Below are positions 1-20,431 of a stretch of DNA of 20,431 bases, in pieces. The translations under genes were made by a program, and so were the position numbers. Source of the DNA: Octopus sinensis. Its lineage: Eukaryota. Positions within the stretch are counted from its first letter, which is position 1. Each line of letters begins with the position of its first letter. The DNA lies in the NCBI RefSeq assembly GCF_006345805.1, contig NW_021824407.1, forward strand, positions 1-20,431, given 5' to 3'. The notes beneath the pieces are model-generated. The model saw nothing but the letters and a program-made list of their open reading frames with translations, was not told the origin of the DNA and did no database searches.

Positions 1-48
1 TAATATAAGTGTTAACCCAACCATCAGCATTATTTGTATCATTAATGC

Positions 49-93
49 GGTTATTATAATTATTATCCACATCTTTATAACCATTATAATTAC

Positions 94-158
<65 letters not shown>

Positions 159-176
159 TCTATTATTACTATTATT
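49..176. repeat. (TTA)n microsatellite, imperfect at edges
   Basis: Direct reading: near-pure ATT/TTA run ~96-158 with degenerate flanks. Confidence 0.9.
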
Positions 177-351
177 CCTTGTCTGACATCTCTTTTTAAA
201 TATCTTTTCTTATATCTTTCTTACTATCTTTGACTATCTTTTAATTTGTAATATTATTATTCATATAACATAGATACCTTCCGTGCAATGGCATTTGATA
301 TCCAGTTAGTGGCTTGCTTCACGTTGATATGCCTTGATGCTTTATGGAAAT

Positions 352-647
352 ATACTAGTTTCAGTCTCTTTCCCTAGTAGTTAATATTGTTCTTAAGCCT
401 GTTACTTAGTCTATCAGTATCCTTTGGCAAACCGCTATGTTACAAAGTAAAGAAAGTAATGTAGGTTGCAAAAACAAAGACTGATATACGACGGCTTTCT
501 TTCAGCTTCTTCTAACAAATCAACACATAAGGCTTTGGTCGGCCCGTGATTATAAGTAGAAGACACCTGAGCGCGTTAATGTGCAGGCAGGATTGAATCC
601 GAAACCATGTGGTTACAAAGCAAGCTTCTTACCACAGAATTGCCTAT
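352..647 (-). mobile_element. Diverged tRNA-derived SINE (octopus-type), same family as 10213-10550
   Basis: Colinear similarity with the 10213-10550 copy (atatacgacggc.ttctttcag, aaggctttggtc.gccc, gaa.cc.gaaaccatgtggtt, caagct.ctta.cacac). Confidence 0.75.
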
Positions 648-719
648 GTGTGTCTTTGGAACCACAACCACCATCACAGGAGGCCGCTACAATCGACAGA
701 TACAGGAAGGCTACCACTA

Positions 720-1262
720 ACGGACATGTTTTCATGAATGACACTGCCAACAAGCACGGGCGGAGTCCCTGCTCAACCTTACCAATGTCTTATTCGTGGA
801 GCAAATTGTGCTCCGACGTGCCAGGGCAAATAATATACTGGATCTCTGTTTCACAAACAATATGAATATCATCCATGATGTGAAATTCACATCGATACTA
901 GTATCGGATCACAATATACCAGAGGTAACTATGTAGGGACCAAAATGAGGTGCGTATATACAACTTGTAAGAAGCCCTTAAAATCTCTTCAGTTTGAATT
1001 TTCATAAAGCAAACTGGAAATCGAATCAGAAAGAGATTTTCGAAAAGGATCCTCGCGCGAGACATTGATATGAAACTGAAACATTTCATAACCGTAATGC
1101 GACCATATGCGACAAATCTGTGCCAGAGCACAAAACGAATACACAAGTACGAGATTCCCAGGGGAAAAAAGTCTTTGAAAAGCCTTTCATAAAGTCCACC
1201 ATGGTATGAAATGTCACAAACTGAGTGATTTCGGCGTGGTCGGAAAACTTGGTGAATGGCTA
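720..1262 (+). mobile_element. CR1/L2-clade LINE ORF2 remnant: APE endonuclease end + linker, joined by an internal deletion to an RT fragment
   Basis: Frame from 748: QQARAESLLNLTNVLFVEQIVLRRARANNILDLCFTNNMNIIHDVKFTSILVSDHNIPEV (LDL and SDH motifs). Then SLNFHKANWK at 991 and ICDKSVP. 1179-1262 reads KAFHKVHHGMKCHKLSDFGVVGKLGEWL, matching the CR1 RT motif KAFDKVdH. In-frame stops present. Confidence 0.88.
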
Positions 1263-1519
1263 CTTATAAAAGAAAAGAGGTGTGTATGTGTTGTGTGTGT
1301 GTGTGTAGAGTAAGTAAATGAGATTAATAAATTTATATATACATTATAAGTACCAGGCATATATCTTTGAAGCATTCTGTGTTAAACAAATTTGGCTAAC
1401 TATATCAAACAATCATATACCAATAAATGCAAGTAAGAATTTAACATCCAGCATAATTTGTCATGTATGACAAGTAATTCCAAATAGCGCTTAGAAGAAA
1501 TTCAAGAACTTCAGAGTAT

Positions 1520-1745
1520 AAGACAAGAAGAACAAGAATAGAGAACATCACGTCTTTAATTTGTGATTGCACTACAGATTACAAACGATCGTTTCTAATG
1601 CGCCAGCGTATTTAGACACATAAAAAGGTATAAAATATCAATCAAATTTATGAATCCGAAGATATATACTAACACAACGTTATCAAGGTCATCCAAAATT
1701 GCTTAAGTTCAAAGTGAACTAAGAAAACAGCTCTTCAGACGAACG
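1520..1745 (+). mobile_element. Possible highly decayed hAT (SPIN/GTF2IRD2/EPM2AIP1-like) transposase N-terminus
   Basis: Frameshifted pieces DKKNKNREHHVFN, KV*NINQIYES, QRYQGHPK, QSELRKQLFRR in the order expected for KRK..E.RvFN / KeYNikRHYE / Y.G / L.KQ..F. Weak. Confidence 0.33.
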
Positions 1746-1804
1746 CATACAAAAAGAACATTAAGAAGAAATATAATGTTTTCAAGAAAAGCAAGTTTAG
1801 TATT

Positions 1805-1808
<4 letters not shown>

Positions 1809-1846
<38 letters not shown>
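1809..1846. repeat. (TA)n microsatellite
   Basis: Direct reading. Confidence 0.95.
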
Positions 1847-1849
<3 letters not shown>

Positions 1850-1912
1850 AGGGGCTTCTTTCAGTTTCCCTCTACAAAGTGCCACGAAGGTGCCACGTAG
1901 TGGGATTGAATA
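1847..1912 (-). mobile_element. Internally deleted fragment of the tRNA-derived SINE
   Basis: gcgaggggcttctttcagtttcc.tctac and ggtgccacgtagtgggattgaa match 10379-10406 and 10472-10493. Confidence 0.7.
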
Positions 1913-2390
1913 CTTTCCAGTGCTCATTTCGCAATGAACATAGGATCTTCCGTAATGGGGGAAAGATTTCGCCTAGCGTTGTATTTATTTCTATTGAATG
2001 TGGCGGATAACGTGCTTTTTATGATGGAGTTTCACCTATTAATATATGTGTATACCTCTATGTTTGTATACATAAATGTGCGTGTGTGTCTGTGGAGAGA
2101 GAGGAGGGGGGAGAGAGAGAAACTGGAAGATAATGCATTCAAAGACACCATTAAATGCTAGAGCATTTTGGTATGTATTTGCTATGCTGTTCAAAGTATT
2201 CTTCATTATAATGGATTGTGAGGATTCCATCTTGAAATTGCGGGAGTGGAATTTGTAAGGATACATTTTTGTCTGTGTATATATTTATGTATATATATAT
2301 ATATATACATGTACAAGATATATACCTAAAATATAAATATACGTAAATATACACATGCAACTATCTCTATATCTATCCATCAAGCTATCT

Positions 2391-2421
<31 letters not shown>

Positions 2422-2625
2422 CCTGTTTGTATACAGACACATTTGCCCAATGTATTCTTACACACATATATACATTTGAGGTAACAACATGAAATGTAAA
2501 TATACGTATAAATGCATATATCTATCTCTTCCTCCCTCTTTTTTTCTACACACACACACACACACTTATATGCACAGACACATATATATATAGGTATATG
2601 TATGCGATGTACATTTGTATTTTTG

Positions 2626-2667
2626 TCTTATATATATATATATATATTTATATATGTGTGTGTGTGT

Positions 2668-2717
<50 letters not shown>

Positions 2718-2752
2718 CTTATGTATATATATATATATACACACACACACAC
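2626..2752. repeat. Compound (TA)n(TG)n(TA)n(CA)n microsatellite
   Basis: Direct reading. Confidence 0.9.
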
Positions 2753-3097
2753 AAGTGCTCTTATTTCATGTTTGAGCAGTCAGTTCTAAGAAAGCCAAAG
2801 CATCGAACTGTAAAAAACTATTCCTCCATCGAAAATACCAATTCTATGAATGCAATCATTGAAAATAGATAAAATAGTCGAACACACATACACACAAACA
2901 TATATATATAGCCCAAAGCAGATAAATACTTAGATTTATTGTGCATACATTTATATACACGAGGGTATACATGTGCACGTGCATATTTATAATGTACACA
3001 CATATACAAACACACAGACGCACAAACATATATATACATACATACACGTTATATATGGATAAACTCGAATTTGTTAAAACACCCACCACACACACAC

Positions 3098-3132
<35 letters not shown>

Positions 3133-3333
3133 TATATACATATGTTGCGTGCGTATATATATAATCCACCTAATGTCACATCACAGAGGTATTTTAGTGC
3201 AAGTGTAGCAATGCAAACAATGGTACCCAAGACTGAAACTTTATAATATATATTAATAAAGAAATAAAACATATGCATATATATAAACATATATGTACGT
3301 ACTACCTCTACATGTACATATACACGCATATAT

Positions 3334-3639
3334 GAGTACAGGACACCAAAGGGACGTCGAACACAAAGAGAAACGAAAACATAGACACAAACCAAAGGAA
3401 CAGGACATTTTTTTAAAAACAACAAAAAATGGAGTACAGGACAGTTAACACAACGAAAAACCCCTTCTTCAGTCGCTAAGGTTTCATCTACTCTACGTTT
3501 CGAAGGATAAAAGCGAGACGCATCTTCGACCAGAAACTTTCCTTCCTGCGAATAGCAAATCAATTAAATTTCTGAGATCTTTCGCAGAGGGGTAAAAAAT
3601 GGTAAAAAATTGGTCAAAAAACAGGACAGTAACGATAGT

Positions 3640-3643
<4 letters not shown>
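3334..3643 (-). mobile_element. Probable Penelope-like terminal (pLTR-type) repeat, related to 10649-10799
   Basis: Starts gagtacaggac like gggcacaggac (10650), has an A-rich arm, and cccttcttcagtcg parallels cccttcatcagttg (10778). Carries acgtttcga, as in 17272. Abuts (TA)n. Confidence 0.45.
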
Positions 3644-3720
<77 letters not shown>

Positions 3721-3910
3721 AGAGTGAAAGAAAGAAAGGAAGGAAGGAAGGGAGGAACAGACAGACAGATACACAAACACACAGACACAGAACTGACACA
3801 CAGACAGACACACACAGGCAGATAGACACACACAAAAAAGTCAGGAAGGCAGATAGACAAACAGGCAGATAGGCAGGCAGACAGGCAATCAGACAGACAG
3901 ATAGATAGAT
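3644..3910. repeat. Compound microsatellite (TA)n(GA)n(GGAA)n(GACA/GGCA)n(GATA)n
   Basis: Direct reading. Confidence 0.9.
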
Positions 3911-4034
3911 TCTTTTGAGGAACGGTGGATCTTGAAGCACACTTAAAAAATGTGAATAGTAACATGTGAAATGTGAAATATGTGAGACTGTCCAAGGGGC
4001 CCAAAGCCATATGTCCTATAGACATGATGCCAAC

Positions 4035-4063
4035 TGTATGTGCGTGTGTATGTGTGTGTGTGT

Positions 4064-4117
<54 letters not shown>
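4035..4117. repeat. (TG)n microsatellite
   Basis: Direct reading. Confidence 0.95.
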
Positions 4118-4118
<1 letters not shown>

Positions 4119-4263
4119 GCAATTATCCTACTTTATCTAATGCCCGCGGCATGGAAGGTAAAATGAAACATATATATTTTGTTATTATTGCTCAGATGAA
4201 GATGAAGATAATGGAAAATAGCTGATTATCCTTATTTTTCTCTATAGGAGACACTGATTAGTA

Positions 4264-4293
<30 letters not shown>

Positions 4294-4294
<1 letters not shown>

Positions 4295-4391
4295 ACGGAA
4301 GCTTTATGAAAATAGACAAAGACCGCAGGTGGAAAACAACAAAGAACAATTGTATTAGTATGGCGCTCAGGAAATATAAATAAAACAAGTC
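4294..4391 (-). mobile_element. Truncated PLE-type terminal fragment
   Basis: gtattagtatggcgctcaggaaa resembles gtattagtggacgctcaggaa (4975) and gtattatttgacgctcaggaaa (17232). Starts directly after (TA)n. Confidence 0.4.
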
Positions 4392-4427
4392 TCTCTCTCT
4401 TCTATATTATATATATATATATATATA

Positions 4428-4819
4428 CTAGCAGTATCGCCGGCGTTGCTCGGGTTTTGTAAGGGAAATAACTATATAAGCATTTTTAGAGATGTAAAGT
4501 ATAATAGCCATCTCAATATGGCTAACCACAATGGGGGGGGGTTACTGTAGCTTTTTACGTTTCTGAGATTTAATAATACATTTTTAGAGAGTTACTTCCC
4601 CTATATAATAGCAAAAAAATGCATTAAAATGGGAAAAATGATGGTAATTTTCTTTTTTAATCGTAGACTCATCGAAGACGCGCGCTAATACCCAGAAGGG
4701 TTCGATATGAATCACGACTATAAGATACCCGCTTTTGGTTACACTGCACCGCAAAATGTGGGAGTAGTTAGGAATCTAAATTGTAGGAGACAGACACACA
4801 ACTTCACTTTATATATAGA
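4428..4819 (-). mobile_element. Non-autonomous Helitron, copy 1
   Basis: Minus strand begins TC (4819-4818) and ends with hairpin CCG-agcaacgc-CGG then CTAG (4431-4428), sitting between A and T. Three more copies in the window. Confidence 0.8.
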
Positions 4820-4854
4820 TATAACATACATATACATACATATATATAATATAT

Positions 4855-4915
<61 letters not shown>

Positions 4916-4919
<4 letters not shown>

Positions 4920-5010
4920 ATCAAAACAAAGCACAAAGAGAAACACAACAACGCGAGGACGTGGAACAAATATAGTATTAGTGGACGCTCAGGAAGGAAG
5001 GGAAGAAGGA
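4916..5010 (-). mobile_element. Truncated copy of the PLE-type terminal at 17170 (stops before the hammerhead)
   Basis: gttaatc.aaacaa...caacgcgaggacgtggaacaaata.agtatta...gacgctcaggaa nearly identical to 17170-17262. Confidence 0.75.
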
Positions 5011-5012
5011 TA

Positions 5013-5018
<6 letters not shown>

Positions 5019-5048
<30 letters not shown>

Positions 5049-5097
5049 TGTATGTATGTATGTATGTATGTATGTATGTATGTATGTATGTATGTAT
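5019..5097. repeat. (TATG)n microsatellite
   Basis: Direct reading. Confidence 0.95.
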
Positions 5098-5271
5098 TGC
5101 TGACACTGCCGGATTCAATGGTACTGCCCAGGTGCTGAAACCATAATAATATGCGTGGGGCACCTGATGAAAGAGGCACGTTGGATTGTTGTTATGGCTG
5201 TGGTATAGTATTGTAATACATCCTTTTATATATAAATATGTGTGTGTGTATGTGTGTATATAGTTCATACT

Positions 5272-5356
5272 AATCAGTACCACTTGAGCACTGATGGCGA
5301 TTCAATCGAATAGCCCCTTCCTGCAAAATATTCAGCCCTGTGAGTATCTTAGAAAA
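5272..5356 (+). mobile_element. Diverged 3' part of a second octopus-type SINE
   Basis: agtaccacttgagcactg..ggcgatt.aatcga.tagcccc.tcc...aaaat.ttcag.cctgtg resembles a recalled cephalopod SINE tail. Not verified by search. Confidence 0.5.
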
Positions 5357-5762
5357 TGTAATTGTAAAGAAGTAAAATTCACTGTGGCGGTTTCCCTCTT
5401 CATGAGGGACATTAGACTTTGCCTTATATTGGACTCTTTTGTCCTGTTTGGTGTTGTTCCTGGCTGCCTCAAGATCGGAGATTCTTGGTAGCAACAGTTT
5501 CCTTTGGTTCTATTCTTTCGCTTCGATCGATCTATTTTCACATTTATTTTCCAGCTTTTCAAGTATGGTCCTTATCACTTAGCAGTGGGTGACCTTGGTG
5601 TTTGACACTGGAACAAAGCTGACTGGTGTAATCGAGGATATTAGCAAATCATCTATTTCCAGTGTTCAGTGCAACCTATTCCCTAACTTCAAGTTTTGTT
5701 GTTGCAGGTTTTCAGGTCTTTAGAATGTCATTATATCTGAGCATTGGGCGGTATTAGTGTCT

Positions 5763-5827
5763 GGCGGCGAGCTGGCAGAAACGTTAGCACGCCGGGTATT
5801 TCGTCTACCGCTACGTTCTGATTTCAA
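5763..5827 (+). mobile_element. Truncated 5' tRNA-like head of a SINE
   Basis: ggcggcgagctggcagaaacgttagcacgccgg with A-box-like TGGCAGAAACG, broken off within a B-box-like gttctgatttcaa. Confidence 0.65.
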
Positions 5828-5872
5828 TACGTATAAATGCATATATCTATCTCTTCCTCCCTCTTTTTTTCC

Positions 5873-6255
5873 ATACTGCAGAAAGGATACCTTCCAATCT
5901 TCTCTGATGGTGAAATGATTAACGAAGACTCTTTATTTCTAGAAAACGGGCTTCTTGTCACACGGCTGATATGGCCCAAGACTTGTTGGATGAGAATGGC
6001 ATTAAAAAGTTTCCGTGGTCAAGCTTGTCACCAGATATGAAGCCTATTGAACTCTCTGTGATATAATGGACAGGACACTTCATAAAAAGAAGAAAGCATC
6101 TTCAAAGCCAGATATTTTGAGACTGCTTCATGAAACTTGGCGTGATATTTTGCAAGAGAATATTCGCATCATAACAATTAATAAATAATTTGAATGTATA
6201 ATTTCAGATTTAAAGTAATTTTAGTGAGTATCAGGGTGTCTACTTACTTCTGTCA
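5873..6255 (+). mobile_element. Tc1-family transposase C-terminal remnant (D34E) plus 3' region
   Basis: With a frameshift near 5950: ILQKGYLP...SLFLENG/ASCHTADMAQDLLDENGIKKFPWSSLSPDMKPIE, and after a second shift LCDIMDR...LLHETWRDI. There are 34 residues between the decayed second D (N in ENG) and E. This matches the Tc1 motifs DgApCHTA and WPxxSPDlNPIE. A possible partial TIR lies at ~6235-6255. Confidence 0.88.
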
Positions 6256-6339
6256 TGTGTGTGTGTGTGTGTGTGTATGTGTGTGTGTGTGTGTGTATGT
6301 GTGTGTGTGTGTGTGTGGTGTGTGGTGTTTTAGGCTGTG

Positions 6340-6555
6340 TCTATATTCATCACACACATCATTGCTCGAAGGCTTGTGTAGCCTAGTTGACGTTCTTGTG
6401 AATTAACGGTTCGGCTAAAAAGACCGTTTGAATAACCACTAGGCTGTAAAAAAAATCGTACTGGGATAATTTCGTTTGATTAAACCTTTTAAGGCGTAGA
6501 ACTAGCATGGCTGCACTCCGATGACTGCGGCAAGTAAAACGTGAGAGATAAAATA
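6340..6555 (+). mobile_element. Old diverged 3' half of the tRNA-derived SINE
   Basis: acggttcggctaaaaagacc, actaggct, aaggcg...ctagcatggctgca...atgactg...caagtaaaa parallel 14945-15075. Confidence 0.6.
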
Positions 6556-6838
6556 ACGTAAAATATTTGCCCAACTGTTGTAACGATAGTGTGAACGTGC
6601 TGTTTCGTTTTTTGTGCATTTATTATAAATATATGTCTGTATATTTGTGTGTGTAAGTGTGTTCGTGTGTGTCTGCGTAAACGTGTGTAGATACACAGAC
6701 ACACAATACCAGGCTCGCATACATATGTAGACTGGAAGATGTTTCAAATGTATAAATACGTTCACACACGTGCATGCATAGATATGTATGGATTTCTATG
6801 TTCGCAGACCTACATGTAAACATATATAGAAATATATG

Positions 6839-6882
<44 letters not shown>

Positions 6883-7585
6883 TGCATGCGTGTGTGTAAG
6901 TCTGTATGTATCTCTGATACATATAGGGTTCACATACACACACTCAGATATTTCTAACATACGTATAGTTGTATTTTTACGTGTTCTAGGAGTCTTATGT
7001 ATATATTTATATGTCTACTTGGATACACACATGCATATATGCATATTCACACAAATATATGTATATAAATGTGTGTGTGTGTGTGTATATATGTACCTCT
7101 GCGTGTGTGCGTGTGTGTTTTTGGTATATACGATTGTATATATGCACCTTCTCCTTTCTAATATATATATGTATATATATATACGTATGTATATATTTTT
7201 ATGAATATGCATACATACATAAATATACATACACAAACACACAAATATATATATACACTAGATACAGCGATAAATTTATAGAAACAGTTATATGTATGTA
7301 TGTATGTATGTATGCCCGTAAGCGTACATGTGTGTGTGTGTGTGTTTGTGTATGTGTGTGTATGCATATATCTATCGTTGTATATACGTTGTTCGTTATA
7401 AACAACACCATGTCGATTTGTTATCGATAGCTAACAAGATTGATAAGCTGAAACGGTGATTGAATTTAGCTAGAAATCAATAAAGTTCACAAATCTCTGC
7501 AGTCAAAATGGCGGTGGCAATTAGCGGAACGTTTTGATGTTAGCTGAATGTATAGGAAAAGTAAGGAGGAAAGAGCTATATATAT

Positions 7586-7632
<47 letters not shown>

Positions 7633-8269
7633 CATAAATATACATACATATTATGTATATACGTATGAGGGAGAGCGAAGGTGATATAGAAGATGATAGC
7701 AATAGAGACCGATAGAAGAGAGAGGGCAATAAAGTGAGAGTGAGAAAGGGAGAGACAGAGAGAGTAAAAGACAGAGACAGTGAGTGGGAGTTAAAGAGAG
7801 AGTGACCAGCGTAACTTCTTCAATGTTGTAATTAAAAGATTCGTAAAATGCTACACGGAGACACACATATACATACATACATATTTACACGCATAAGTGC
7901 GCATATTTTTACACACATATTTGCACATATAAATACGCATAAATATACATATATACATACGTACATATATGTGCATATATATATACATACATACACATAT
8001 ATATTTACATATAGTGTGGAGTAGTATAAAATGTGGATTTAGAGAATCGTGAGGCTATCACATGAAGCACCTCCTACAGTCCCGGCTATCACTTCACATA
8101 ATAATCAATTACAAAGTAGTGTTAAGTGTTAGTGCATCTGAAAATCCAGATACTTGTATACACACACACACACATTAATTATATGTATATATATGTCTGT
8201 GTCTGGGCGTGTGTGTGTTCATAGATAGATAGATATATTCCTAAATATATATATATATATGTATGTATA

Positions 8270-8352
<83 letters not shown>

Positions 8353-8356
<4 letters not shown>

Positions 8357-8550
8357 AGGATGAAAAGGAACACACGAGTCGATATAAATGAAAAAACAAG
8401 TCAAGATAGAAATGCTAAAATAATTTTAAAAAGAACATTTTAGTACAGGCTTCAGTCATTTTGAGACCTTTTCAACTGTAACGAATAAATAATTAAATTT
8501 AGAAAAATTAAAAGAAATGTTTTTTTTAAAGGAATATTTGTATATCCTAC
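8353..8550 (-). mobile_element. Probable PLE-type terminal repeat with degenerate hammerhead
   Basis: Follows (TA)n(TG)n. Same A-rich arm architecture as 17170. Contains the 8442-8478 motif. Confidence 0.4.
8442..8478 (-). ncRNA. Degenerate hammerhead-like motif, U3-A8 core
   Basis: Minus: AG-UUGAAAA-GGUC ucaaaau GACU-GAAG-CCU-GUA-CU. Core 3-8 pair is U-A, but GAAA is GAAG and stem I is only 2 bp. Confidence 0.4.
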
Positions 8551-8858
8551 TACATGTATAAACACAAGGACAGAACTTTTTGGTTCATGCCCACACGTGA
8601 CTAAATTTCTGTTACGTTTTTGGTCCCCTAAAGAAAACAGATAGAACATGCTTTCTATGTTATGTCCCAAGAAGGTTTTTTTACCTCATCACACCTTCTA
8701 TCATATATTTTATGTATATTTTTATATATTTTTTATATATTTTTTATGTATTTTTATATAATTTTATGGCGAAAAGTGCGAGCGATGTATAAGTACGCAG
8801 GCAAGCAGAGTTATAACACAGTAATTTCCTTTGTATAACGGTATTTTTCATAGCGTTT

Positions 8859-8939
8859 TCAATAGCCAGATAACCGAAGAGATGGTGTTGTGGATTTCAC
8901 TTCGGCATGTGAAACTCAGAGTTTTATCTTGACTATCGA
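8859..8939 (+). ncRNA. Type I hammerhead-ribozyme-like motif, core CCGAAGA
   Basis: Stem I AGAUAA/UUAUCU extended by AUAG/CUAU. Core CCGAAGA 8874-8880. Imperfect stem II (AUG/CAU, GUGGA/UUCAC). GAAA 8911-8914. Stem III ACUC-A-GAGU. Triplet GUU, predicted cut after 8923. Confidence 0.68.
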
Positions 8940-9030
8940 GTAATGTAACATATTATTTTATAGATAAATTTTCTCTATTTACATAATATTGAGGTCTCTC
9001 TTTCTTTTCTTTTGTTATCTTACCGTTTTA

Positions 9031-9033
<3 letters not shown>

Positions 9034-9113
<80 letters not shown>

Positions 9114-9135
9114 TATGTATATATATATTATATAT
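9034..9135. repeat. (TA)n microsatellite downstream of the hammerhead-bearing repeat
   Basis: Direct reading. Confidence 0.9.
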
Positions 9136-9504
9136 TTCATAAATATCTACGCACCTCATTGTAAACTACTAGAGAGTTATAAGGTGAAGTATAACCATTC
9201 ACTCTGAGTGCATTGCAGCTAGTAACAGAAACAGCTGTAAGCTAAAGAATCTGCGTAAATCTTGTTTGCTTGTCACTCCATTAGCTTATGTCTTATGGAT
9301 CAACTGTTACCGTGTAATCTTTGGCGCTCCTCTTTCACCAAGTTTTCTCTTTTCAATGCATTATATTAGAGTCCTTCTACAAATGGCTTCATTCAAAGTT
9401 TCCACAAACGTTGAGGATAATGGAATCACAGACGGTCTGTGCTCGTTTTCTACTGAACCTATTACAATAAAAAAAAACGCCTAAGGTTATGGTTAGGGTA
9501 TTGG

Positions 9505-9834
9505 ACCGGATGACTTGCTAGGACTAATGTAAGTCTTCTACACCAGTTGTACTGATCTTCAATAGCAGTCTTCGTAGCCTCAAATTGATATCTAATGGCT
9601 TCCACAGATTGATGTCCTCTTCTTGATCCTCAGGCGCCTGTGGGTTTATGAGTAGTCAGTACCCATGAGTCATAGAGAATCACTGATTCAATAACTGTTT
9701 TTGTAAAAAAAAATCTTCTTCGTGTTGTTAGGTACGGAGGACTTCTATATGATTCTGAGGCTGTCTAAGGCATTCACTACTTTCGTAATCCTTACCTGGA
9801 TACCTGTTTCTGTTGAAGCAATGTTATTTTCCAG
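9505..9834 (-). mobile_element. RTE-clade LINE 3' remnant
   Basis: Minus translation LENNIASTETGIQVRITKVVNALDSLRII*KSSVPNNTKKIFF / KTVIESVILYDSWVLT, then KTAIEDQYNWCRRLTLVLAS. This matches the post-RT RTE pattern YLGS.I..TE.DI..RI.KA...L..IWKS...K...F...VES.LLYG...W.LT and the terminal AM.DR..W. Confidence 0.8.
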
Positions 9835-10212
9835 GTTAGGATTAGGATTAGAGTTAAGGTGGGGACTGCAGTTAGATTTGGCTTTCCATGATGTATCTAC
9901 TCTCAGTATGATTCACACATTGCTATTTTAAAGAAAATTGAAACAATTTGTAAAACAAAATTATTTTTCTTACCTTTCGCGTAAATTATTTATCCTGAAA
10001 ATAAGGAAAATAGATAATTATTAGAAAGGTAATAAGAATATGGAAGACTTCTGGATATGTATATGCATGTATAGATGTATATAGATTGATGGATGCAAGT
10101 TAATACATTATATATGGGTGCATGTGTCCATGTATGTAGGTACGATTGTGCGTTTGTATGTATTTATGTTCATTTATGTTCAACCAGTGACCTAGCATAC
10201 TTTAAAAAATCC

Positions 10213-10550
10213 GGATTCTTTGTAAGCCTAGTACTTATTCTATCGGTCTCTTTTGCCGAACTGCTAAGTTACGGGGACATAAACACACCAGCATTGGTTG
10301 TCAATCGATGTTGGGGGACAAGCACAGACACACAAATATGTTCACACACATAAATACATACATATATATACGTATATACGACGGGCTTCTTTCAGTTTCC
10401 ATCTACCATCTACCAAATTGACTCACAAGGCTTTGGTCAGCCCGAGGTTATAGTAGATGACACTTGCACAAGATGCCACGCAGTGGGACTGAACCCGGAA
10501 CCACGTGGTTGGTAAGCAAGCTACTTAACACACAACCACACTTGCACCTA
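10213..10550 (-). mobile_element. tRNA-derived SINE (octopus OK/OR-type), near complete, with internal (TA/CA) tract
   Basis: Minus 5' end ataggtgcaagtgTGGTTGTGTGTTaag (A box) ... GGTTCAGTCCC (B box, 10495-10485). The 3' half is homologous to 14867-15086. Confidence 0.85.
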
Positions 10551-10648
10551 TATAAACATATATATATATAATATAAATAATATTTATGCATATATATACA
10601 TACGTATATATACATACTTACATCTATACGTATATAAATATCCATATG

Positions 10649-10799
10649 TGGGCACAGGACGTAACAAAACGTGTACAACAAAAAATACGAAGTACGTGTA
10701 CATAGAATATGAACTATTTTTTCGAACAACGAAAGATGCAAATAGAAAACAAGACAAAGAGCACAATAAAAAACGGCCCTTCATCAGTTGTTGGCTGTT
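10649..10799 (-). mobile_element. Truncated PLE-type terminal with CUGAUGA
   Basis: Homologous architecture to 3334-3480. TCATCAG at 10781-10787 is CUGAUGA on minus. Interrupted by the next element. Confidence 0.4.
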
Positions 10800-11050
10800 G
10801 TGGAAGGTGCAAATAAGCCATTTAAAAACATTAAAACAGATTCACTTCAACATTTAATTTATTGCATCATGGAATTTTTTCAGAGAACAGGTCGCGGTTT
10901 CAAAGCGACGAAAATATTTTGACAAATTTAATTTAAACGTTGAAGTGGATCTAACGGTTTACGTGTGTATTTAAATGGCTCGTAAACACCTTCCACTCTG
11001 CAATTGTTTTTGTTTCAGGACATTATCTCAAATCAGGTCACTTGCTTATG
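10800..11050. mobile_element. Short palindromic (MITE-like) element made of two inverted copies of the hammerhead-bearing terminal
   Basis: 10800-10861 is the imperfect reverse complement of ~10927-10997. The right arm matches 14202-14348 and the reverse complement of 11096-11294. Confidence 0.75.
10876..10926 (+). ncRNA. Hammerhead-like motif, G3-C8 family, mutated copy (GAGAACA)
   Basis: UCA-GAGAACA-G-GUCGC gguuucaaa GCGAC-GAAA-AUAU-UU-UGA. U4 is changed to A. Confidence 0.55.
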
Positions 11051-11056
11051 TCCGTA

Positions 11057-11097
<41 letters not shown>

Positions 11098-11148
11098 AGA
11101 TGTACTTGCATAGCGAGTGACTTGATCTGAGATGTTGTGCTGGAACGA

Positions 11149-11956
11149 AAACAATTGCAGCGTGGAAGGTGTTTATAAACCATTTAAGAAACACACAAAA
11201 GCCGTTAGATTCACTTCAACATTTAAATTTAATTTGTCAAAATATTTTCGTCGCTAAAATCCGCGATCTGTTCACTGACAAAACTTCGTGCTGCGTTCAT
11301 GATATATATGTACGTACGTACGTACGTACGTACGTATGTATGTATGTATGTATGTATGTATGTATGTATGTATGTATGTATGTATGTATGTATGTATGTA
11401 TGTATGTATGTATGTGTGTGTATGTATGTATGTATGTATGTATGTATGTATGTATGTATGTATGCATGTATGTATGTATATGTGTGTATGTATGTATGTA
11501 TGTATGTATACATGTATGTATGTATGTATGTATGTATGTATGTATGTATGTATGTATGTATGTGTGTATATATGTGTGTACATGTATCTGCGCATGCATG
11601 TTTACATGCCAATACGCATGTATGTAAGTACATACGTATGTATGTGTATATTTAGGAGAGTGTGTAGACGTGTCTGTGTGTGTGTACATGTGTATGTACA
11701 TGTGAACGTATGTTTATGTAATGATATGTGTCAGTTCAAGTTGTATACATGACTGTTACCTTGTTGAAGTTTGTATATATACACACATATACATTTATAT
11801 AGACACACACATACACACACATATATATGCGTTTGTCCCTCTCACCACGGTGAATGGATACAACGTCTTAGATACATATATACACATATAACCTTATACA
11901 TATATACAAGTACACACAATCATATAGACACTTACACATACACACAAATATACGTA
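11149..11956 (-). repeat. Left inverted arm (reverse complement of 13698-14348 and 15237-15880)
   Basis: Colinear reverse-complement match, including the unique segments gtcagttcaagttgtatacatgactgttaccttgttgaag and gtccctctcaccacggtgaatggatacaacgtcttag. Longer because of (TATG)n expansion. Confidence 0.93.
11233..11282 (-). ncRNA. Type I hammerhead-like motif, core GUGAACA (G3-C8)
   Basis: Minus: UUUGUCA-GUGAACA-GAUCGC ggauuuua GCGAC-GAAA-AUAU-UU-UGACAAA. Confidence 0.68.
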
Positions 11957-13245
11957 AAGGCGGTGCTATTGGAGTAAGGATAGCCGATGGTGTTGCAAAC
12001 CTCGTATGGTGAGACAGACATTTTAAACAGTGCCTAGCGACCCGTAACATCCACTTCACTATGTACTCTCGATATGTTGATGACATTAACCTTGTCGTGA
12101 AATGTAATAATAATACAGACACAGAGACAGACTCTCTACTAAATGAAGAACAGGTGATGACAGCTATACAACACATAGCTGACTCTATTCATAGCAGTAT
12201 AAAAGTTACCGTGGACTACCCCTCTAAACACACCCCAGTAATAGATACCTGTCCTAGATACTGAGCTGTGGATGGAAAATACTATGGTTAACGGAACAGT
12301 TAAACCCTGTATACTCCACTCACACTATTGTAAACCTATGGCTAATCCACTGGTAACCCGTAGTGACTCAGCGATGTCGAGTACTACCAAGCTCAACATC
12401 CTGGTGGCAGACTTCGTAGAGTAATGTGGAATGTATCTTCACTATGCCAACCACAAGAACGACAACACGCATCCAGCACTTCATATTCCGAATGCAACGT
12501 TCCGTATACACACAATATGACAGAATCAGAGTGTACAAAGGAGCGAAAACAAGATTCGAACGCATTCTAAGAGATGACGAAACGGTATATGCCCCCTATA
12601 CCGCAACAAGTTCCGAAATAGGTTAGAGAGAGACACCAACAAAAGAAATAAAACCAATACTTGATAGAAGAAATTTCACTGTGTAATGTTTGTTGACGCC
12701 ACACCTAAGAACGAATTATGTAAGGCATTCAAGAAAATCCTGCACACAACTGGCCTTAAGATCAAGGTTGTAGAAAAGACAGGTACAACTATCAAATCTG
12801 TATTATGTAGATCATATCCATTTGATAGATTCACATGTCAAAATAATTGTGCAGTATGTTCTACAAACCCACATGTGAACTGCAAAACCAAGAGCACTGT
12901 ATACCAAATTAAGTGCCAAGATGGAGCTTGCGCGACTAACCCAGAGTCATACATAGGTGAGACTTCTAGGTGTATCAATGATAGGTTCAAAGAACACCTG
13001 GACAACTACATTAAAAAGAAGCCAAACTCCATCTTCTATCAGCATGCTTTAGACTGCCACAAGGGCTCCTTAGGAGACTTAAGTTAAACATCTTTTCCAC
13101 ACATCCCACTGATGCAATGCTGAGACAGGTCACTGAAGCTGTCTGTATACAAGAATACAAACCACTCTCAACCGAAAATCCGGATGGGGTAACATCCAGA
13201 TTCCACTCGGGAGTACCATTCTATAACACCCCTCACGAGTAGTAA
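11956..13245 (+). mobile_element. Penelope-like retroelement ORF remnant (5'-truncated RT + thumb + C-terminal GIY-YIG endonuclease), pseudogenised
   Basis: KGGAIGVRIADGVANLVW*DR...MYSRYVDDINLVV (RT motifs 4/5); DYPS; IPVLDTELW; HYCKPMA; SAMS; RMQRS.Y; CPLYRNK; CQNNCAVC...NCKTKSTVYQIKCQDGAC...YIGETSRCINDRFKEH...H...H; DAMLRQVTEAVCI; LNRKSGWG. Multiple frameshifts and stops. Confidence 0.93.
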
Positions 13246-13697
13246 TCCATGCATACATGTTGAATGCATGGTACTAAAATGCATATATGCAGTTATATAT
13301 AACCGTACGAGCGTACATTGTTTGATACGTATGTACGTATGTGTTGATGTATATGTGTGCAGACGTGTGTGTATGTGTTGTGTGTGTTGTGTAATGTTAG
13401 TGTATAAGTATGTATATGCATGCACATATGAGTAGGTGTAAATATATATGAATTATATATGTATGCATGTAAAAAAATTAAAAAAAGAATAAATAGAATA
13501 AAATAAAGCAAGTTACAATTTTACCGTTGTCCTTGAAAAGAGTGTCATATACATGTATATATATATGTAAATGTATGTGTGTATGTATGTATGTTATATA
13601 TATATATATATATAATATATATGTGTATCTATGTGTGGGTATATGTATATATGTATGTAGAGATGGATGAGCGTGTATGTGTGATACTTTAAGATTA

Positions 13698-14348
13698 TAC
13701 GTATATTTGTGAGTATGTGTAAGTGTCTATATGATTGTGTGTACTTGTATATATGTATAAGGTTATATGTGCATATATTGTATCTAAGACGTTGTATCCA
13801 TTCACCGTGGTGAGAGGGACAAACGCATATATATGTGTGTGTAGTGTGTGTCTATATAAATGTATATGTGTGTATATATACAAACTTCAACAAGGTAACA
13901 GTCATGTACAACTTGAACTGACACATATCATTACATAAACATACGTTCACAAGTACATACACATGTAAACACACACAGACACGTCTACACACTCTCCTAA
14001 ATAATCATATACATACGTAAGTACATACATACATGCGTATAGGCATGCACACATGCATGCGCACATACATGTACACACACATACTACGCACATACATACA
14101 TACATACATACATACATACATACATACATACATACATACATACATACACACACACATACATACGTACATATATATCACGTACTAACTGTTACTTTCTCAG
14201 ATGCAGCACGAAGTTTTGTCAGTGAACAGATCGCGGTCTGAAAGCGACGAAAATATTTTGACAAATTAAATTTAAATGTTGAAGTGAATCGAACGGCTTT
14301 TGTGTGTTTCTTTATGACTTATAAACACCTTCCACGCTGCAATTGTTT
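13698..14348 (+). repeat. Right inverted arm ending in the hammerhead-bearing terminal
   Basis: Reverse complement of 11149-11956. Followed by (TA)n. Confidence 0.93.
14215..14265 (+). ncRNA. Type I hammerhead-like motif, core GUGAACA (G3-C8)
   Basis: Stem I UUUGUCA 14215-21 / UGACAAA 14259-65. Core 14222-28. Stem II G(A)UCGC/GCGAC. GAAA 14249-52. Palindromic stem III AAUAUU. Predicted cut after 14258. Confidence 0.7.
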
Positions 14349-14409
14349 ATATATATATACGTGTATGTGTGCATGTATATATAGAGATGCATTCATTTTT
14401 TATAATATA

Positions 14410-14790
14410 CTAGCAGTATCGCCCGGCGTTGCTCGGATTGTAAGGGAAATAACTATATAAGCATTTTTAGAGAGTTATAGCCAAAAAATAGCAAAAAAAT
14501 GCATTAGAAATGGAAAAAAAATATGGTAATTTTTTTTTAAATCGTTGACTCATCGTCGACATTTTCAGAGAGTTACTTCTTTATATAATAGCGAAAAAAT
14601 GCATTAAAATGGAAAAAATGATGGTAATTTTTTTTTTAATCGTAGACTTATCGTAGACGCGGCGCTAATACCCAGAAGGCTCGATATGAATCACGACTAT
14701 AAGATACCCACTTTTAGTTAAACTGCACCGCAAAATGTGGGAATCTAATCGTAGGAGACAGACATACAACTTGACTTTTATATATAAAGA
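14410..14790 (-). mobile_element. Non-autonomous Helitron, copy 2
   Basis: A|TC ... CCG-agcaacgc-CGG ... CTAG|T on minus. Homologous to 4428-4819, with an internal ~120 bp repeat. Confidence 0.8.
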
Positions 14791-14866
14791 TATATATAAG
14801 TATATAGATCTAAAAAAATCATATATATATATATGTGCGTGTGTAAATGTGTGTGTGTATGTGTGT

Positions 14867-15086
14867 GTATGTTTGTGTATCTGTGTTTGTCCCCCCCCCA
14901 ACCTCGCTCGACAACCGAAGCTGGTGCGTTTACGTCCCCGTAACCTAGCGGTTTGGCAAAAGAGACAGATAAAGTAAGTACTAGGCTTACAAAGAATAAG
15001 CTCTGGGGTTGACTTGCTCGACTAAAGGTTATGCTCCAGCATGGCCGCAGTTAAATGACTGAAACAAGTCAAAGAATAAAAGAATA
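14867..15086 (+). mobile_element. 3' half of the tRNA-derived SINE
   Basis: Reverse-complement homolog of 10213-10335, plus tail gctccagcatggccgcagttaaatgactgaaacaag-(aaagaata)2. Confidence 0.8.
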
Positions 15087-15745
15087 TATAAGTATATATA
15101 AGTATATTACATACATATATATATACATATATGTATATATATATATATCTATATATATATGTGTATCTATGTGTGGGTATATGTATATATGTATGTAGAG
15201 ATGGATGAGCGTGTATGTGTGTATACTTTAAGATTATACGTATATTTGTGAGTATGTGTAAGTTCTATATGATTGTGTGTACTTGTATATGTATAGGTTA
15301 TATGTGCATATATGTATCTAAGACGTTGTATCCATTCACCGTGGTGAGAGGGACAAACGCATATATATGTGTGTGTATGTGTGTGTCTATAAAATGTATA
15401 TGTGTGTATATACAAACTTCAACAAGGTAACAGTCATGTATACAACTTGAACTGACACATATCATTACATAAACATACGTTCACAAGTACATACATGTAA
15501 ACACACACAGACACGTCTACACACTCTCCTAAATAATCATATACATACGTAAGTACATACATACATGCGTATAGGCATGCACACATGCATGCGCACATAC
15601 ATGTACACACATACATACGCACATACATACATACATACATACATACATACATACATACATACATACATACATACATACACACACACATACATACGTACAT
15701 ATATATCACGTACTAACTGTTACTTTCTCAGATGCAGCACGAAGT

Positions 15746-15796
15746 TTTGTCAGTGAACAGATCGCGGTCTGAAAGCGACGAAAATATTTTGACAAA
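15746..15796 (+). ncRNA. Type I hammerhead-like motif, G3-C8 (duplicate of 14215-14265)
   Basis: Identical motif in the second tandem unit. Confidence 0.68.
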
Positions 15797-15944
15797 TTAA
15801 ATTTAAATGTTGAAGTGAATCGAACGGCTTTTGTGTGTTTCTTATATGACTTATAAACACCTTCCACGCTGCAATTGTTTATATATATATATACGTGTAT
15901 GTGTGCATGTATATATAGAGATGCATTCATTTTTTATAAATATA

Positions 15945-16331
15945 CTAGCAGTATCGCCCGGCGTTGCTCGGATTTGTAAGGGAAATAACTATATAAGCAT
16001 TTTTAGAGAGTTATAGCCAAAAAATAGCAAAAAAATGCATTAGAAATGGAAAAAAAATTATGGTAAATTTTTTTTTAAATCGTTGACTCATCGTCGACAT
16101 TTTCAGAGAGTTACTTCCTTTATATAATAGCGAAAAAATGCATTAAAATGGAAAAAATGATGGTAATTTTTTTTTTTAATCGTAGACTTATCGTAGACGC
16201 GCGCTAATACCCAGAAGGGCTCGATATGAATCACGACTATAAGATACCCACTTTTAGTTAAACTGCACACCGCAAAATGTGGAATCTAATCGTAGGAGAC
16301 AGACATACAACTTGACTTTTATATATAAAGA
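15945..16331 (-). mobile_element. Non-autonomous Helitron, copy 3 (duplicate of copy 2)
   Basis: Same termini and flanks as 14410-14790. Confidence 0.8.
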
Positions 16332-16406
16332 TATATATAAGTATATAGATCTAAAAAAATCATATTATATATATGTGCGTGTGTAAATGTGTGTGTGTAT
16401 GTGTGT

Positions 16407-16626
16407 GTATGTTTGTGTATCTGTGTTTGTCCCCCCCCCCAACCTCGCTCGAACAACCGAGCTGGTGCGTTTACGTCCCCGTACCTAGCGGTTTGGCAAA
16501 AGAGACAGATAAAGTAAGTACTAGGCTTACAAAGAATAAGCTCTGGGGTTGACTTGCTCGACTAAAGGTTATGCTCCAGCATGGCCGCAGTTAAATGACT
16601 GAAACAAGTCAAAGAATAAAAGAATA
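16407..16626 (+). mobile_element. 3' half of SINE (duplicate of 14867-15086)
   Basis: Near-identical to 14867-15086. Confidence 0.8.
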
Positions 16627-16690
16627 TATAAGTATATATAAGATATATACATACATATATATATACATATATTATATATATATATATTAT

Positions 16691-16735
<45 letters not shown>

Positions 16736-16736
16736 C

Positions 16737-17161
16737 CTAACAGTATCGCTCGGCGTTGCTCGGGTTTGTAAGGGAAATAACTATATAGCATTTTTAGAGA
16801 GTTACTTACCCTTATAGATGCCAATTCGGGCTTTCTTAGCCATTTCTGTTTTGGTGTCTTCAAGCCATGAAGTCGTTGTTCTAAAAGAACGCTGGTCTCC
16901 TGACAACGCTTTACGACGTTGATTTCCTTACACTCCCTTCCCCACAGCTTCACGAGGGAGGGAAGAAGGAGTAGAAGCAAACAGGTGCAGGTGTGACATG
17001 GACGCCAACTCCGCCGCCATCGACACACGAAATGGAATAAAAATAATGTTAAATTATTTTTAAATTCGTAGACTCATCGTAGACGCGCGCTAATACTCAG
17101 ACGGGCTGCACCGCAAAATGTGGGAGTAGTTAGGAATCTTACAGTTTTATATATATATAGA
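16737..17161 (-). mobile_element. Non-autonomous Helitron, copy 4, with a different internal segment
   Basis: Same ends (3' CTAG mutated to TTAG; cagtatcgc.cggcgttgctcggg; gcaccgcaaaatgtgggagtagttaggaatct). 16817-17050 is absent from the other copies. Confidence 0.75.
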
Positions 17162-17169
17162 TATATAAA

Positions 17170-17345
17170 GTTAATCCAAACAAGAAAACACAGAAAAAAA
17201 CACAGCAACGCGAGGACGTGGAACAAATAAAGTATTATTTGACGCTCAGGAAAGAAGGGAAGGAGGGTTTAACGTTTCGAGCGGAGCTCTTCGTCGGAAA
17301 CTAGGAGAAGGAAAGATCCCAAGGAGGGAAGACAGAGGAAAAAAA
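17170..17345 (-). mobile_element. Penelope-like terminal (pLTR-type) repeat with hammerhead
   Basis: Second copy at 4916-5010. Contains the motif at 17267-17301. Ends in TA-rich sequence. May extend to ~17620. Confidence 0.6.
17267..17301 (-). ncRNA. Minimal type I hammerhead-like motif, core CCGACGA
   Basis: Minus: GUUU-CCGACGA-A-GAGC ucc GCUC-GAAA-CG-UU-AAAC. Stem I GUUU/AAAC, palindromic stem III AACGUU, triplet GUU. Confidence 0.72.
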
Positions 17346-17744
17346 TATTTTTGCTGGTGGTGCTCAAGAGATCACATGTTGAAAGAACAGAAGTTGAGAG
17401 GTAGACGAATCATGATTTTTAAAAACAAGAGAGTTTCAAAGACAAGGATTGTGTGTAGGTGCGTATGTGTGTGTGTTTGTGTGCAAGGACGACAAGTGTG
17501 TTTGTACGTGTGTGCGTGTGTGTGTATGTATGATGAATAATAGCCATGGCAAGCTAGCTGTCATAAAGGAGTGGCACTTGTTTGTATCCAGCCAGGTCAA
17601 AACCAGGTCAAAAAACAAAGGGGTATATATGTGTGCGTGTAAGTATATGTATCATGCGTGTGTGCTGTTTGTAGTGTGTGCTGTTTGTAGTGTGTGTGTG
17701 TTCGTGTGTTGTATGCGTGGAGTTTGGGTGTGTGGCGAGTAACT

Positions 17745-18802
17745 GTGCGTAACCTAGTGTATGTGTGCGCGTGTGTGTGTAGGGATGTATGTGTGGGTTC
17801 ATTTGTGTGAGTATGTAACGTGTATGTGTGTGCGTGTATGGGTGCGTTTGTATGTGTTTATGTGTATGAGTGCGTGCGCGGCAAGGTGTATATTGTGTAT
17901 GTATATCTGTCGGTGTGTATGTGAGTTTGTGTGTGTTTGTACGTGGGTATGTGTGTGTGCGTGTATAGTATATATATACGTAAATGTGTGTGTGTGTGCG
18001 TATGTGTGTACGTGCGTGCGAGTGAATGTATGTATATATGCGTGCGTGTGTGTACAGTATAGAGGCTTATATGTGTGTTTATATGTTTATATGTGTGTAT
18101 GAATGTATGTATGTATGTGTGTATGTGTGTAAGTGTGTGTGTGTATGTATGTGTGTATGTATGTGTATGTATGTATGTGTGCATGCGTGTATGTGTGTGT
18201 GAATGTATGTATGTATGTATATGTATGTGTGTGTATGTATCTATGTATGTATGTGTGTACGTATGTGTGTGTATGCTTGTATGTGTGTATGTGTGTATGT
18301 GTATGTATGTGTGTAAATGTATGCGTGTGTGTATGTATGTATGTGTGTATGTGAGTGTATGTGTGTATGTATGTGTGTGTATGTATGTGTGTGTGTGTGT
18401 ATGTGTGTATATGTATGTGTATGTATGTGTGTATGTATGTATGTGTGCCTGCGTGTATGTATGAATGTGTGTGTGTATGTATGTATATATATGTGCGTGT
18501 GTGTGTATGTATGTATCTATGTATGTATATATGTGTGTATGTATGTGTGTGTATGTGTGTATGTGTGTGTATGTGTATGTATGTATGTATATGTATGCGG
18601 GTGTGTATGTATGTGTGTATGTGTGTGTGTATGTGTGTATGTATGCGTGTGTGTATGTATGTATGCGTATATGTGTGTGTATGTATGTATTTATACCGGC
18701 GTGTAAGAGTGTATGTGCGTGTATGTGCGTGTATGTACGTATGTATGTATATGTATGTGTGTGTGTGTATGTATGTATGTATCTATGTATGTAGTGTATG
18801 TA

Positions 18803-18833
<31 letters not shown>

Positions 18834-20340
18834 GCATGCGTGCATGTGTGTATGTGTGTGTATGTATCTATATATATATATATGTGTGTGTATGTGTGTG
18901 TATGAGTGTATATGTGTGTGTATGTATGTGCGTATGTATGTATGTATGTATGTGTGTGTATGTATGTATGTATGTATGTATGTATGTGTGTGTATGTATG
19001 TGTGTAAGTGTGTGTGTGTGTGCATGTATGTCTGTATGTACGTGTGTGTGTATGTATGTGTGTGTATGTATGTATGTGTGCGTGCGTGTGTGTGTATGTG
19101 TGTGTGTGTGTTATGTATCTATGTATGTATGTGTGTATGTATGTGTGTATATATGTATGTATCTGTGTGTATGGATGTATGTGTGTATGTGTGTGTGTAT
19201 GTGTATGTATGTATGTATATGTATGCGTGTGTGTATGTGTATGTATGTATGTATATGTATGCGTGTGTGTATGTATGCATGTGTGTATGTGTGTAAGTAT
19301 GTATGTATGTGTGTGCATGTAAGTGTGTGTGTATGTATGTATGTACGGGTGTATGTGTGTAAGTGTGTGTGTGTAAGTGTATGTGTATGTATGTATGTAT
19401 ATGTACGCGTGTGTGTATGTATGTATGTGTGTATGTGTGTGTATGTGTGTATAGTATGGGTGTGTGTGTATGTGTGTGTGTATGTATGTGTATGTATGTG
19501 TGCATGCGTGTATGTGTGCATGTGTGTGTGTCTCTATGTATGTATGTATATAAATGTGTGTGTGTATGTATATATGTGTCTATGTATGTATGTGTGTATG
19601 TATGCGTGTGTGTGTGTATGTATGTATGTGTGTGTATGTATGTGTATGTATGTGTGTATGCATGTATGTCTGTATGTAAGTGTGTGTGTGTATGTATGTG
19701 CGTATGTATGTGTGTATGTGTGTGTGTATGTATGTGTATATATGTAATGTATGTGTGTATGTGCGTGTGTGTACGTATGTATGTATATGTATGTTTGTGT
19801 GTATGTATGTATACGTATATGTGTGTGTATGTATGTATGTATGTATGTATCTATGTATGTGTGTATGTGTGTGTGTATGTATGTTTGTATATGTATGTGT
19901 GTGTATGTGTGCATGTGCGTGTATGTGTGTATGTATGTATGTGTATGTGTGTATGTATGTGTGTGTATGTATGTTTGTATGTGTGTCTGTATGTGTGCAT
20001 GTATGTGTGTATGTATGAATGTATGTATGTATGTGTGTACGTGTGTGTGTATGTATGTGTGCATGTATGTGTGTATGTATGTATGTATGTATGTATGTAT
20101 GTGTGTGTATGTATGTGTATGTATGTATGTTATGTGCGTGCGTATGTGTGGGTATGTGTGTGTATGTATGTATATGTATGTGTGTGTATGTATGTATGTG
20201 TGTATGTATGTCTGTGTGTGAATGTATGTATGTGTGCATATGTGTATGTGTGGTGTATGTATGTGTGTATGTAATGTATGAATGTATCTATGTATGTATT
20301 ATGTGTTTTTACGTATGTATGTGTGTGTGTGAATGTATGT
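17745..20340. repeat. ~2.6 kb compound (TG)n/(TATG)n low-complexity tract
   Basis: Direct reading. Source of the long MYVC/HTYI ORFs. Confidence 0.95.
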
Positions 20341-20431
20341 TTTTGGGGGGGGGGGGAGTTGTGTGGACGTAAGGTACATGCGCGTGCTTGTGTGCGTGTG
20401 TGCGCTTACGTGCGTGTGTCTGTGCGTCTCA

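Follow-up and report, generated by a model that had tools for sequence, protein, structure and literature searches.

Minimal hammerhead ribozymes (min-HHRs) have been described in metazoan Penelope-like elements (PLEs), and here seven hammerhead-type motifs are treated that lie in a stretch of 20,431 nucleotides from Octopus sinensis (contig NW_021824407.1, positions 1..20,431, hereafter the window). The min-HHRs are of type I with a short palindromic stem III, a short stem I, a G10.1-C11.1 pair and an extra base between positions 9 and 10.1; they are located in pseudo-long terminal repeats (pLTRs), exist as thousands of truncated copies, and cleave weakly and as dimers (Cervera and De la Pena, 2014; PMC4209133). 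A U3-A8 variant was accepted there, with ~1,300 matches in S. mansoni, while the legible rows of Fig. S3 of that study display CUGA or UUGA cores, and among them neither G3-C8, U4C or A6U nor any cephalopod. A diminished stem III, dimer cleavage and an association with PLEs are likewise features of the small HHR variants of Lunse, Weinberg and Breaker (2017, as cited in PMC6765202).

For the Poseidon element PAc of the green anole, a protein-assisted pLTR hammerhead adjoining the start of the open reading frame (ORF) was reported, together with two 3' ends giving a short tail (Frangieh, 2024; PMC11167929). This ribozyme has the canonical C3-G8 pair, and the engineered G3-C8 (C3G/G8C) gave partial rescue only. 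Among natural core variants, U3-A8 is found, U4C is tolerated in a viroid and A6C is active but slow in a phage; such variants are called rare, and G3-C8 and A6U are not in the passages covered (Perreault, 2011; PMC3088659). Non-LTR retrozymes also carry type I hammerheads and are PLE-related, but consist of non-coding tandem repeats (bioRxiv 10.64898/2026.07.22.740005). In the literature, G3-C8 was found only as an engineered pair and natural G3-C8 or A6U was not found, although the largest survey (Lunse 2017), outside our scope, may list them; PLE ribozymes of cephalopods were not found either. The hammerhead class, its link to PLEs (2014), U3-A8 and U4C are thus already published, and the advance made here is one of variants and not of kind.

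The seven motifs belong to four families: A (10876, 11233, 14215 and 15746, by first position), B (17267), C (8874) and D (8442). The reading proposed here, to which we give a probability of about 0.55, is that they are minimal type I hammerheads in the pLTRs of four PLE families, whose source elements would still cut RNA slowly, as protein-assisted dimers. It builds on the location, layout and covariation of the motifs, and borrows dimerisation, protein help and cleavage from related elements.

Hammerhead motifs at the ends of coding elements

All seven motifs of the initial annotation were recovered with the cores it gave (Table 1), and positions 3 and 8 are complementary in each. The four carrier repeats are unrelated at DNA level, as had been proposed (best cross-family E 0.053), and where alignable their proteins share 21–33% identity. 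A Penelope origin of the hammerhead-type fold was also borne out, since the motifs lie in pLTRs behind ORFs for a reverse transcriptase (RT) and a GIY-YIG domain. The view of the repeats as non-autonomous had to be given up. Because families A–D extend into such RT/GIY-YIG ORFs, which are open over 1,042 aa in one copy of A and over 1,008 aa in copies of B, the window motifs are mostly truncated ends of coding PLEs.

For family A, 24 of the 29 loci outside the window in which the ORF was found have the motif downstream of it and on its strand (1.5 kb downstream examined), as do six of seven extended loci, some of which overlap the 29. At one locus (L243) the pLTR runs into an ATG frame starting ~75 nt past the predicted cut. 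For family B, the motif follows the ORF in 17 of 20 extended loci, with the core CCGACGA in all 17, and two loci (L295 and L296) contain complete pLTR-ORF-pLTR units with 1,008-aa frames and the motif both 5' and 3'. The ORF of full-length B elements is flanked by two identical motif copies; the pLTR pair of L295 is 98.7% identical over 380 nt. In longer copies of family C, 186 nt separate the end of a 468-aa RT/GIY-YIG frame from the motif, and longer copies of family D carry a GIY-YIG frame with a Neptune-type CxxC linker, which ends ~690 nt upstream.

The PLE motifs DKG, YxDD and YIG are present in the carrier ORFs, the RT part of D being only partly read. A CX2-5CxxC linker between RT and endonuclease was identified in A, B and D and not in C; besides being typical of Neptune, such a linker is also a Nematis feature (PMC8557442). 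Support from Pfam is weak: GIY-YIG scored above the cut-off in D (E 6.5e-5, locus L180) and sub-threshold in A, B and C; the A ORF of the window reached E 3.8e-4, below the cut-off, and in the whole 1,042-aa A frame the domain was not found by Pfam. A sequence search of the PDB with the A protein gave 0 matches. Furthermore, 42 same-family pairs stand head to head as inverted partners, and 113 family A 3' ends comprise 51 long, 37 short and 25 other, i.e., two alternative 3' ends; both features are PLE hallmarks (PMC8557442, PMC11167929), and a short tail from two 3' ends is shared with the anole element.

Retrozyme- or SINE-like (short interspersed nuclear element) ribozyme repeats, unrelated to coding elements, would explain why most copies are short (~200–400 nt shared) and why tblastn found no ORF link for 25 copies of B', a sister family of B introduced below. 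However, A–D all reach upstream into their ORFs with variable 5' ends, and tandem hammerhead arrays of 150–400 nt, as in retrozymes, were not seen in the window. This explanation is refuted for A–D and overall very improbable.

Chance matches can be dismissed almost entirely. A relaxed descriptor does yield some matches in shuffled sequence (3.2 per 600 kb, all classes counted), but randomly placed genome stretches totalling 600 kb gave eight matches that have both a 3-8 pair and A6, compared with 0.4 in five shuffles. Within the window, a strict descriptor recovered three of the seven motifs against a mean of 0.125 (maximum 1) per shuffle over 40 shuffles, the other four being missed because of their lesions. 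Together with the fixed place in PLE pLTRs and reversed-pattern controls without a match, this refutes chance. A first random sample of 60 x 10 kb returned four, six, four and no matches for A, B, C and D, too few for statistics. In an Rfam search of the window, hammerhead families are absent from the best 150 of 289 matches, which are microsatellite-driven or weak.

Motif 14215 displays a 7-bp stem I, an extra G, a 5-bp stem II and the palindrome AAUAUU, with a predicted cut after U14258. Motif B consists of a 4-bp stem I, an extra A, a 4-bp stem II and the palindrome ACGU, and is the sole intact copy of the window. The other six differ in core or stems from their own family majority: A10.1 replaces G in three A copies, 10876 combines U4A with a stem I mismatch, and at 8874 the first stem II pair is broken. 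Motif 8442, the only one previously flagged as degenerate, indeed has three changes, all repaired in the D majority; yet damage is the rule, affecting six of seven copies. Motif C has an extra base before G12 and a near-palindromic stem III, and older copies carry the core CUGAAGA. The seven motifs represent about five insertions: 11233 and 14215 form an inverted pair, 15746 belongs to a tandem duplicate, and 10876 is an older separate insertion with 83% identity to 14215. Most genomic copies, including these six, are truncated and decaying passengers.

Table 1. Hammerhead motifs and carrier elements in the window.
Feature	Position	Strand	Remarks
Hammerhead motif D	8442..8478	-	core UUGAAAA at 8475-8469, U3-A8, 4-bp stem II
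Hammerhead motif C	8868..8929	+	core CCGAAGA at 8874-8880, U4C, long stem II, U17
Hammerhead motif A, first copy	10876..10926	+	core GAGAACA at 10883-10889, U4A private to copy
Hammerhead motif A, inverted partner	11233..11282	-	core GUGAACA at 11275-11269, G3-C8, A10.1 lesion
Hammerhead motif A, 3' pLTR, ~1 kb past ORF	14215..14265	+	core GUGAACA at 14222-14228, A10.1 lesion
Hammerhead motif A, tandem duplicate	15746..15796	+	core GUGAACA at 15753-15759
Hammerhead motif B	17267..17301	-	core CCGACGA at 17297-17291, U4C, U17
Family D PLE 3' end (pLTR), 5'-truncated	8356..8544	-	longer copies carry GIY-YIG ORF
Family C PLE 3' end	8546..9034	+	begins within last ORF codons
Family A inverted partner, 5'-truncated	11096..11956	-	matches 13698-14348 plus longer tail
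Family A RT + GIY-YIG ORF, broken, 5'-truncated	11956..13223	+	YVDD, CxxC linker, YIGET; frameshifts and stops
Family B PLE 3' part	17135..20431	-	pLTR and long (CATA)n-rich 3' region; contig end precedes ORF

The family B part of the window is 79–85% identical to two further loci (L248 and L097), and a B terminal-repeat fragment without the hammerhead part lies at 4894-5009. The arrays of (TATG)n/(CATA)n at 18070-20340 and 13230-14200 are the 3' regions of families B and A, 1–4 kb long; such long arrays being part of PLE 3' regions, these elements spread microsatellite-like DNA. At 8544/8546, D (-) and C (+) abut 5' to 5' with one base between them and microsatellites at the outer ends. This junction resembles a PLE inverted partner, though made of two unrelated families, and could stem from a single double-ended insertion in which two RNAs were used; among the head-to-head pairs without a TA run, two of 44 are cross-family.

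The tandem duplicate (13547-15194 / 15084-16733, ~1.53 kb, 96% identical) spans unrelated repeats and is either a real duplication or an assembly artefact. An eighth candidate, at about 3490-3560 (-), combines GAAA-CG-UA with paired stems; a recognisable core is absent and it was left uncounted. The dispersed repeat around this GAAA-CG-UA (3330-3640, -) gave seven matches in six loci of 1.6 Mb searched. Two further repeats are abundant, one at 10215-10540, 14832-15087 and 16372-16627, the other at 4418-4870, 14401-14834, 15935-16374 and 16672-17120, putatively a cephalopod SINE and a helitron-like element.

Core variants as family majorities

The genome (2.72 Gb in 13,516 contigs) was searched for exact matches to a pattern of each family with the core left free; cores were tallied in the first 100 matches listed per family, all on the sequence labelled C1. 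The high abundance suggested earlier was substantiated, with 3,703 matches for A, 8,918 for B and 3,104 for C, and 0 for the reversed patterns of A, B, C, D and B'. Among the 100 matches listed for A, 85 have GUGAACA, four GUGAAGA, two CUGAACA and nine other cores, none being canonical. For B, 62 are CCGACGA, 28 canonical and 10 others, and for C, 81 are CCGAAGA, 13 canonical and six others. A search for CUGAnGA would consequently miss most motifs, but the earlier expectation was overstated, since such a search would find the 28 B and 13 C matches listed. Extrapolated from these fractions, an estimated ~26,000 matches of A, B, C and B' would escape such a search and ~2,900 would be found.

For D, UUGAAAA is present in 60 of 65 matches and the canonical core in none of the 65; these stem from a short-loop pattern only and are not a full count of D. 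The 2,042 candidates of a first look were discarded as a measure of D copy number, not being copies. The D majority has GAAA, A17 and the palindrome ACCGGU, where the window copy has GAAG and CCUG; at its position 11.1, the letters C and U are equally frequent (17 vs 17). In family C, stem II needs either a bulge or one additional base ahead of G12.

The family majorities are thus G3-C8 in A, U4C in most B and C, and U3-A8 in D, which resembles the accepted variant of S. mansoni (PMC4209133). What is called rare elsewhere (PMC3088659) here forms the majority of whole PLE families, and the G3-C8 that was engineered in the anole element (PMC11167929) is the natural majority of A. All four majorities agree with the hammerhead boxes N3-A9 and GAAA (G5, A6, A9, G12-A14, A15.1-U16.1, H17). 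A and B also share with the min-HHRs (PMC4209133) the G10.1-C11.1 pair closing stem II and the extra base after A9, and stem III is palindromic throughout (A AAUAUU, B ACGU, C ACUC-R-GAGU, D ACCGGU). The complementarity of positions 3 and 8, said to be kept in each motif, is retained as a Watson-Crick pair by the majority of every family, the exception being G3-G8 in four of the 100 A matches listed.

Outside the window, a sister family of B (B'; e.g., L008:1901(-), L296:9053(-) and L313:4849(+), as locus and position) combines B-like stems with the core CUGUNGA and is the most abundant family counted, with 13,218 exact matches. Position 6 is U in 99 of the 100 matches listed, so that A6U is fixed and B' departs from the hammerhead boxes at A6. 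Positions 3, 4, 6 and 8 are 97–99% fixed, whereas position 7 is free (U 49, A 21, C 16, G 14), and the outer stem I pair is flipped to C-G relative to B. A sister PLE family of A, known from two loci (L255:3552 and L256:4528), has 48–49% protein identity, a U3-A8 hammerhead and the palindrome AAUU. Single candidates with other stems (L015:2452, L024:2126, L063:5132/5038, L064:176 and 9695, L297:6837; cores UUGAUAA, UUGAAAA, CCGAUGA, CUGACAA and CUGAUGA) suggest additional PLE families.

Signs of selection on the hammerhead block

Once inserted, copies decay neutrally, so that only those changes that subfamilies have in common are informative. The 3-8 pair covaries, as had been claimed, being G3-C8 in A and U3-A8 at the same place in the sister family of A and in D. 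In 58 copies of B and B', the outer stem I pair is G-C in 27, C-G in 18 and G-U in four, and at position 17 a G occurs once, the other 57 having U, A or C there. This pattern tells more than the p values given below: a 3-8 pair kept in the forms G-C, U-A and C-G, the freedom of position 7 and the avoidance of G17 are marks of the catalytic conformation. At the core 14222-14229, every alternative letter stays below 3% in four public sequencing runs with four organism labels, which probably denote close relatives, and the single common stem change yields a U-G pair.

That core and stems are better kept than their flanks, an expectation of the initial annotation, was examined by comparing structure and flank columns with shared variation. 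It stood at indicative p values for A (0/42 vs 11/123 including the loop, p 0.035; loop II holds four of the 11), and in a gapped alignment for B (3/30 vs 38/147, p 0.044) and B' (0/30 vs 39/136, p 1e-4), but not for C and D. An anchored ungapped version (p 1e-8) was set aside as inflated by the search pattern and flank indels, and the gapped test is relied on. Across the subfamilies of B and B', which are 70–97% identical, the hammerhead block is strongly conserved.

Mechanistically, a transcript through tandem pLTRs would bring two motifs together, the stem III palindromes of which could pair and form a stable stem III. The protein of the element itself would aid folding, and a cut after position 17 would shorten the precursor at a point shortly ahead of the ORF. 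In the source elements, selection would retain the catalytic geometry and tolerate slow cores, and each family would therefore have drifted to its own core variant. It is tentatively suggested, and more doubtful than the general reading, that G3-C8 in A and A6U in B', letters unreported from nature, are part of working hammerheads kept active by dimerisation and the PLE protein.

Several observations weigh against slow cleavage as the selected function. Owing to shared ancestry the p values are indicative only, and there is no significant signal in C (1/41 vs 16/216, p 0.21) or in D (2/29 vs 6/152, p 0.88; a young, similarity-selected sample). Conservation in B and B' extends to loop II as well. 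C has its additional base between stem II and G12, half of the D copies have G-U at 10.1-11.1, and in the predicted fold of D, U3 pairs with A17, similar to the C3-G17 pairing known to be inhibitory in hammerheads (PMC3884650). U4C and A6C lower the activity in vitro (PMC3088659). The anole PLE needed protein for cleavage and could insert in vitro without cleaving, and no read end fell at the site (PMC11167929). In family A, a lineage with a G3-G8 mismatch has spread; it makes up four of the 100 matches listed, an unbiased sample, and 12 of 109 copies in a biased one, on several chromosomes (L008, L010-L012, L019, L021, L025, L193, L257, L315-L317); segmental duplication was ruled out here, as the 3' junctions differ and the insertions are separate. 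Finally, in the B subfamily whose frames are intact, the 4-bp stem I contains a U-U mismatch (13 of 33 copies).

Part of these observations would fit a fold selected as a binding or dimerisation element for the PLE protein, acting in ribonucleoprotein assembly or in placing the start of reverse transcription, with cores that no longer cut usefully. The G3-G8 lineage and the U-U subfamily were both amplified, A6U is fixed across at least 13,218 matches to the B' pattern, loop II is conserved in B/B', cleavage can be dispensed with in vitro (PMC11167929), and Naiad PLEs are described as thriving without canonical HHRs (PMC8557442). Against this explanation speak a 3-8 pair kept in three forms, a free position 7 and an avoided G17, and we regard it as rather unlikely.

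Alternatively, the motifs could be vestigial, dead hammerheads carried passively, the core of each family being fixed by chance in an amplifying source copy. The damage to six of seven window copies and the missing constraint in C and D point this way, as do the rise of U4C over canonical cores in two families and its presence in all 17 ORF-linked B loci. Against this stand the strong block conservation across B and B', the compensatory change in stem I and the double change that G3-C8 requires, which make a passive origin improbable. Slow, assisted cleavage in the source elements is the reading retained.

Meaning for hammerheads of Penelope-like elements

PLE hammerheads cut poorly in vitro, and cutting was dispensable for one element. 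The octopus genome contains near-intact elements in which G3-C8, U4C (twice independently), U3-A8 and A6U are family majorities, and canonical as well as mismatched relatives within the same genome serve as built-in controls. Comparing these variants could tell selection on cleavage from selection on the fold alone, and would widen the rules by which hammerheads are searched.

If G3-C8 and A6U are active, searches for CUGAnGA would overlook ~26,000 motif copies. The families would then form a natural mutagenesis series, which would include the G3-G8 step between the canonical and the G3-C8 cores.

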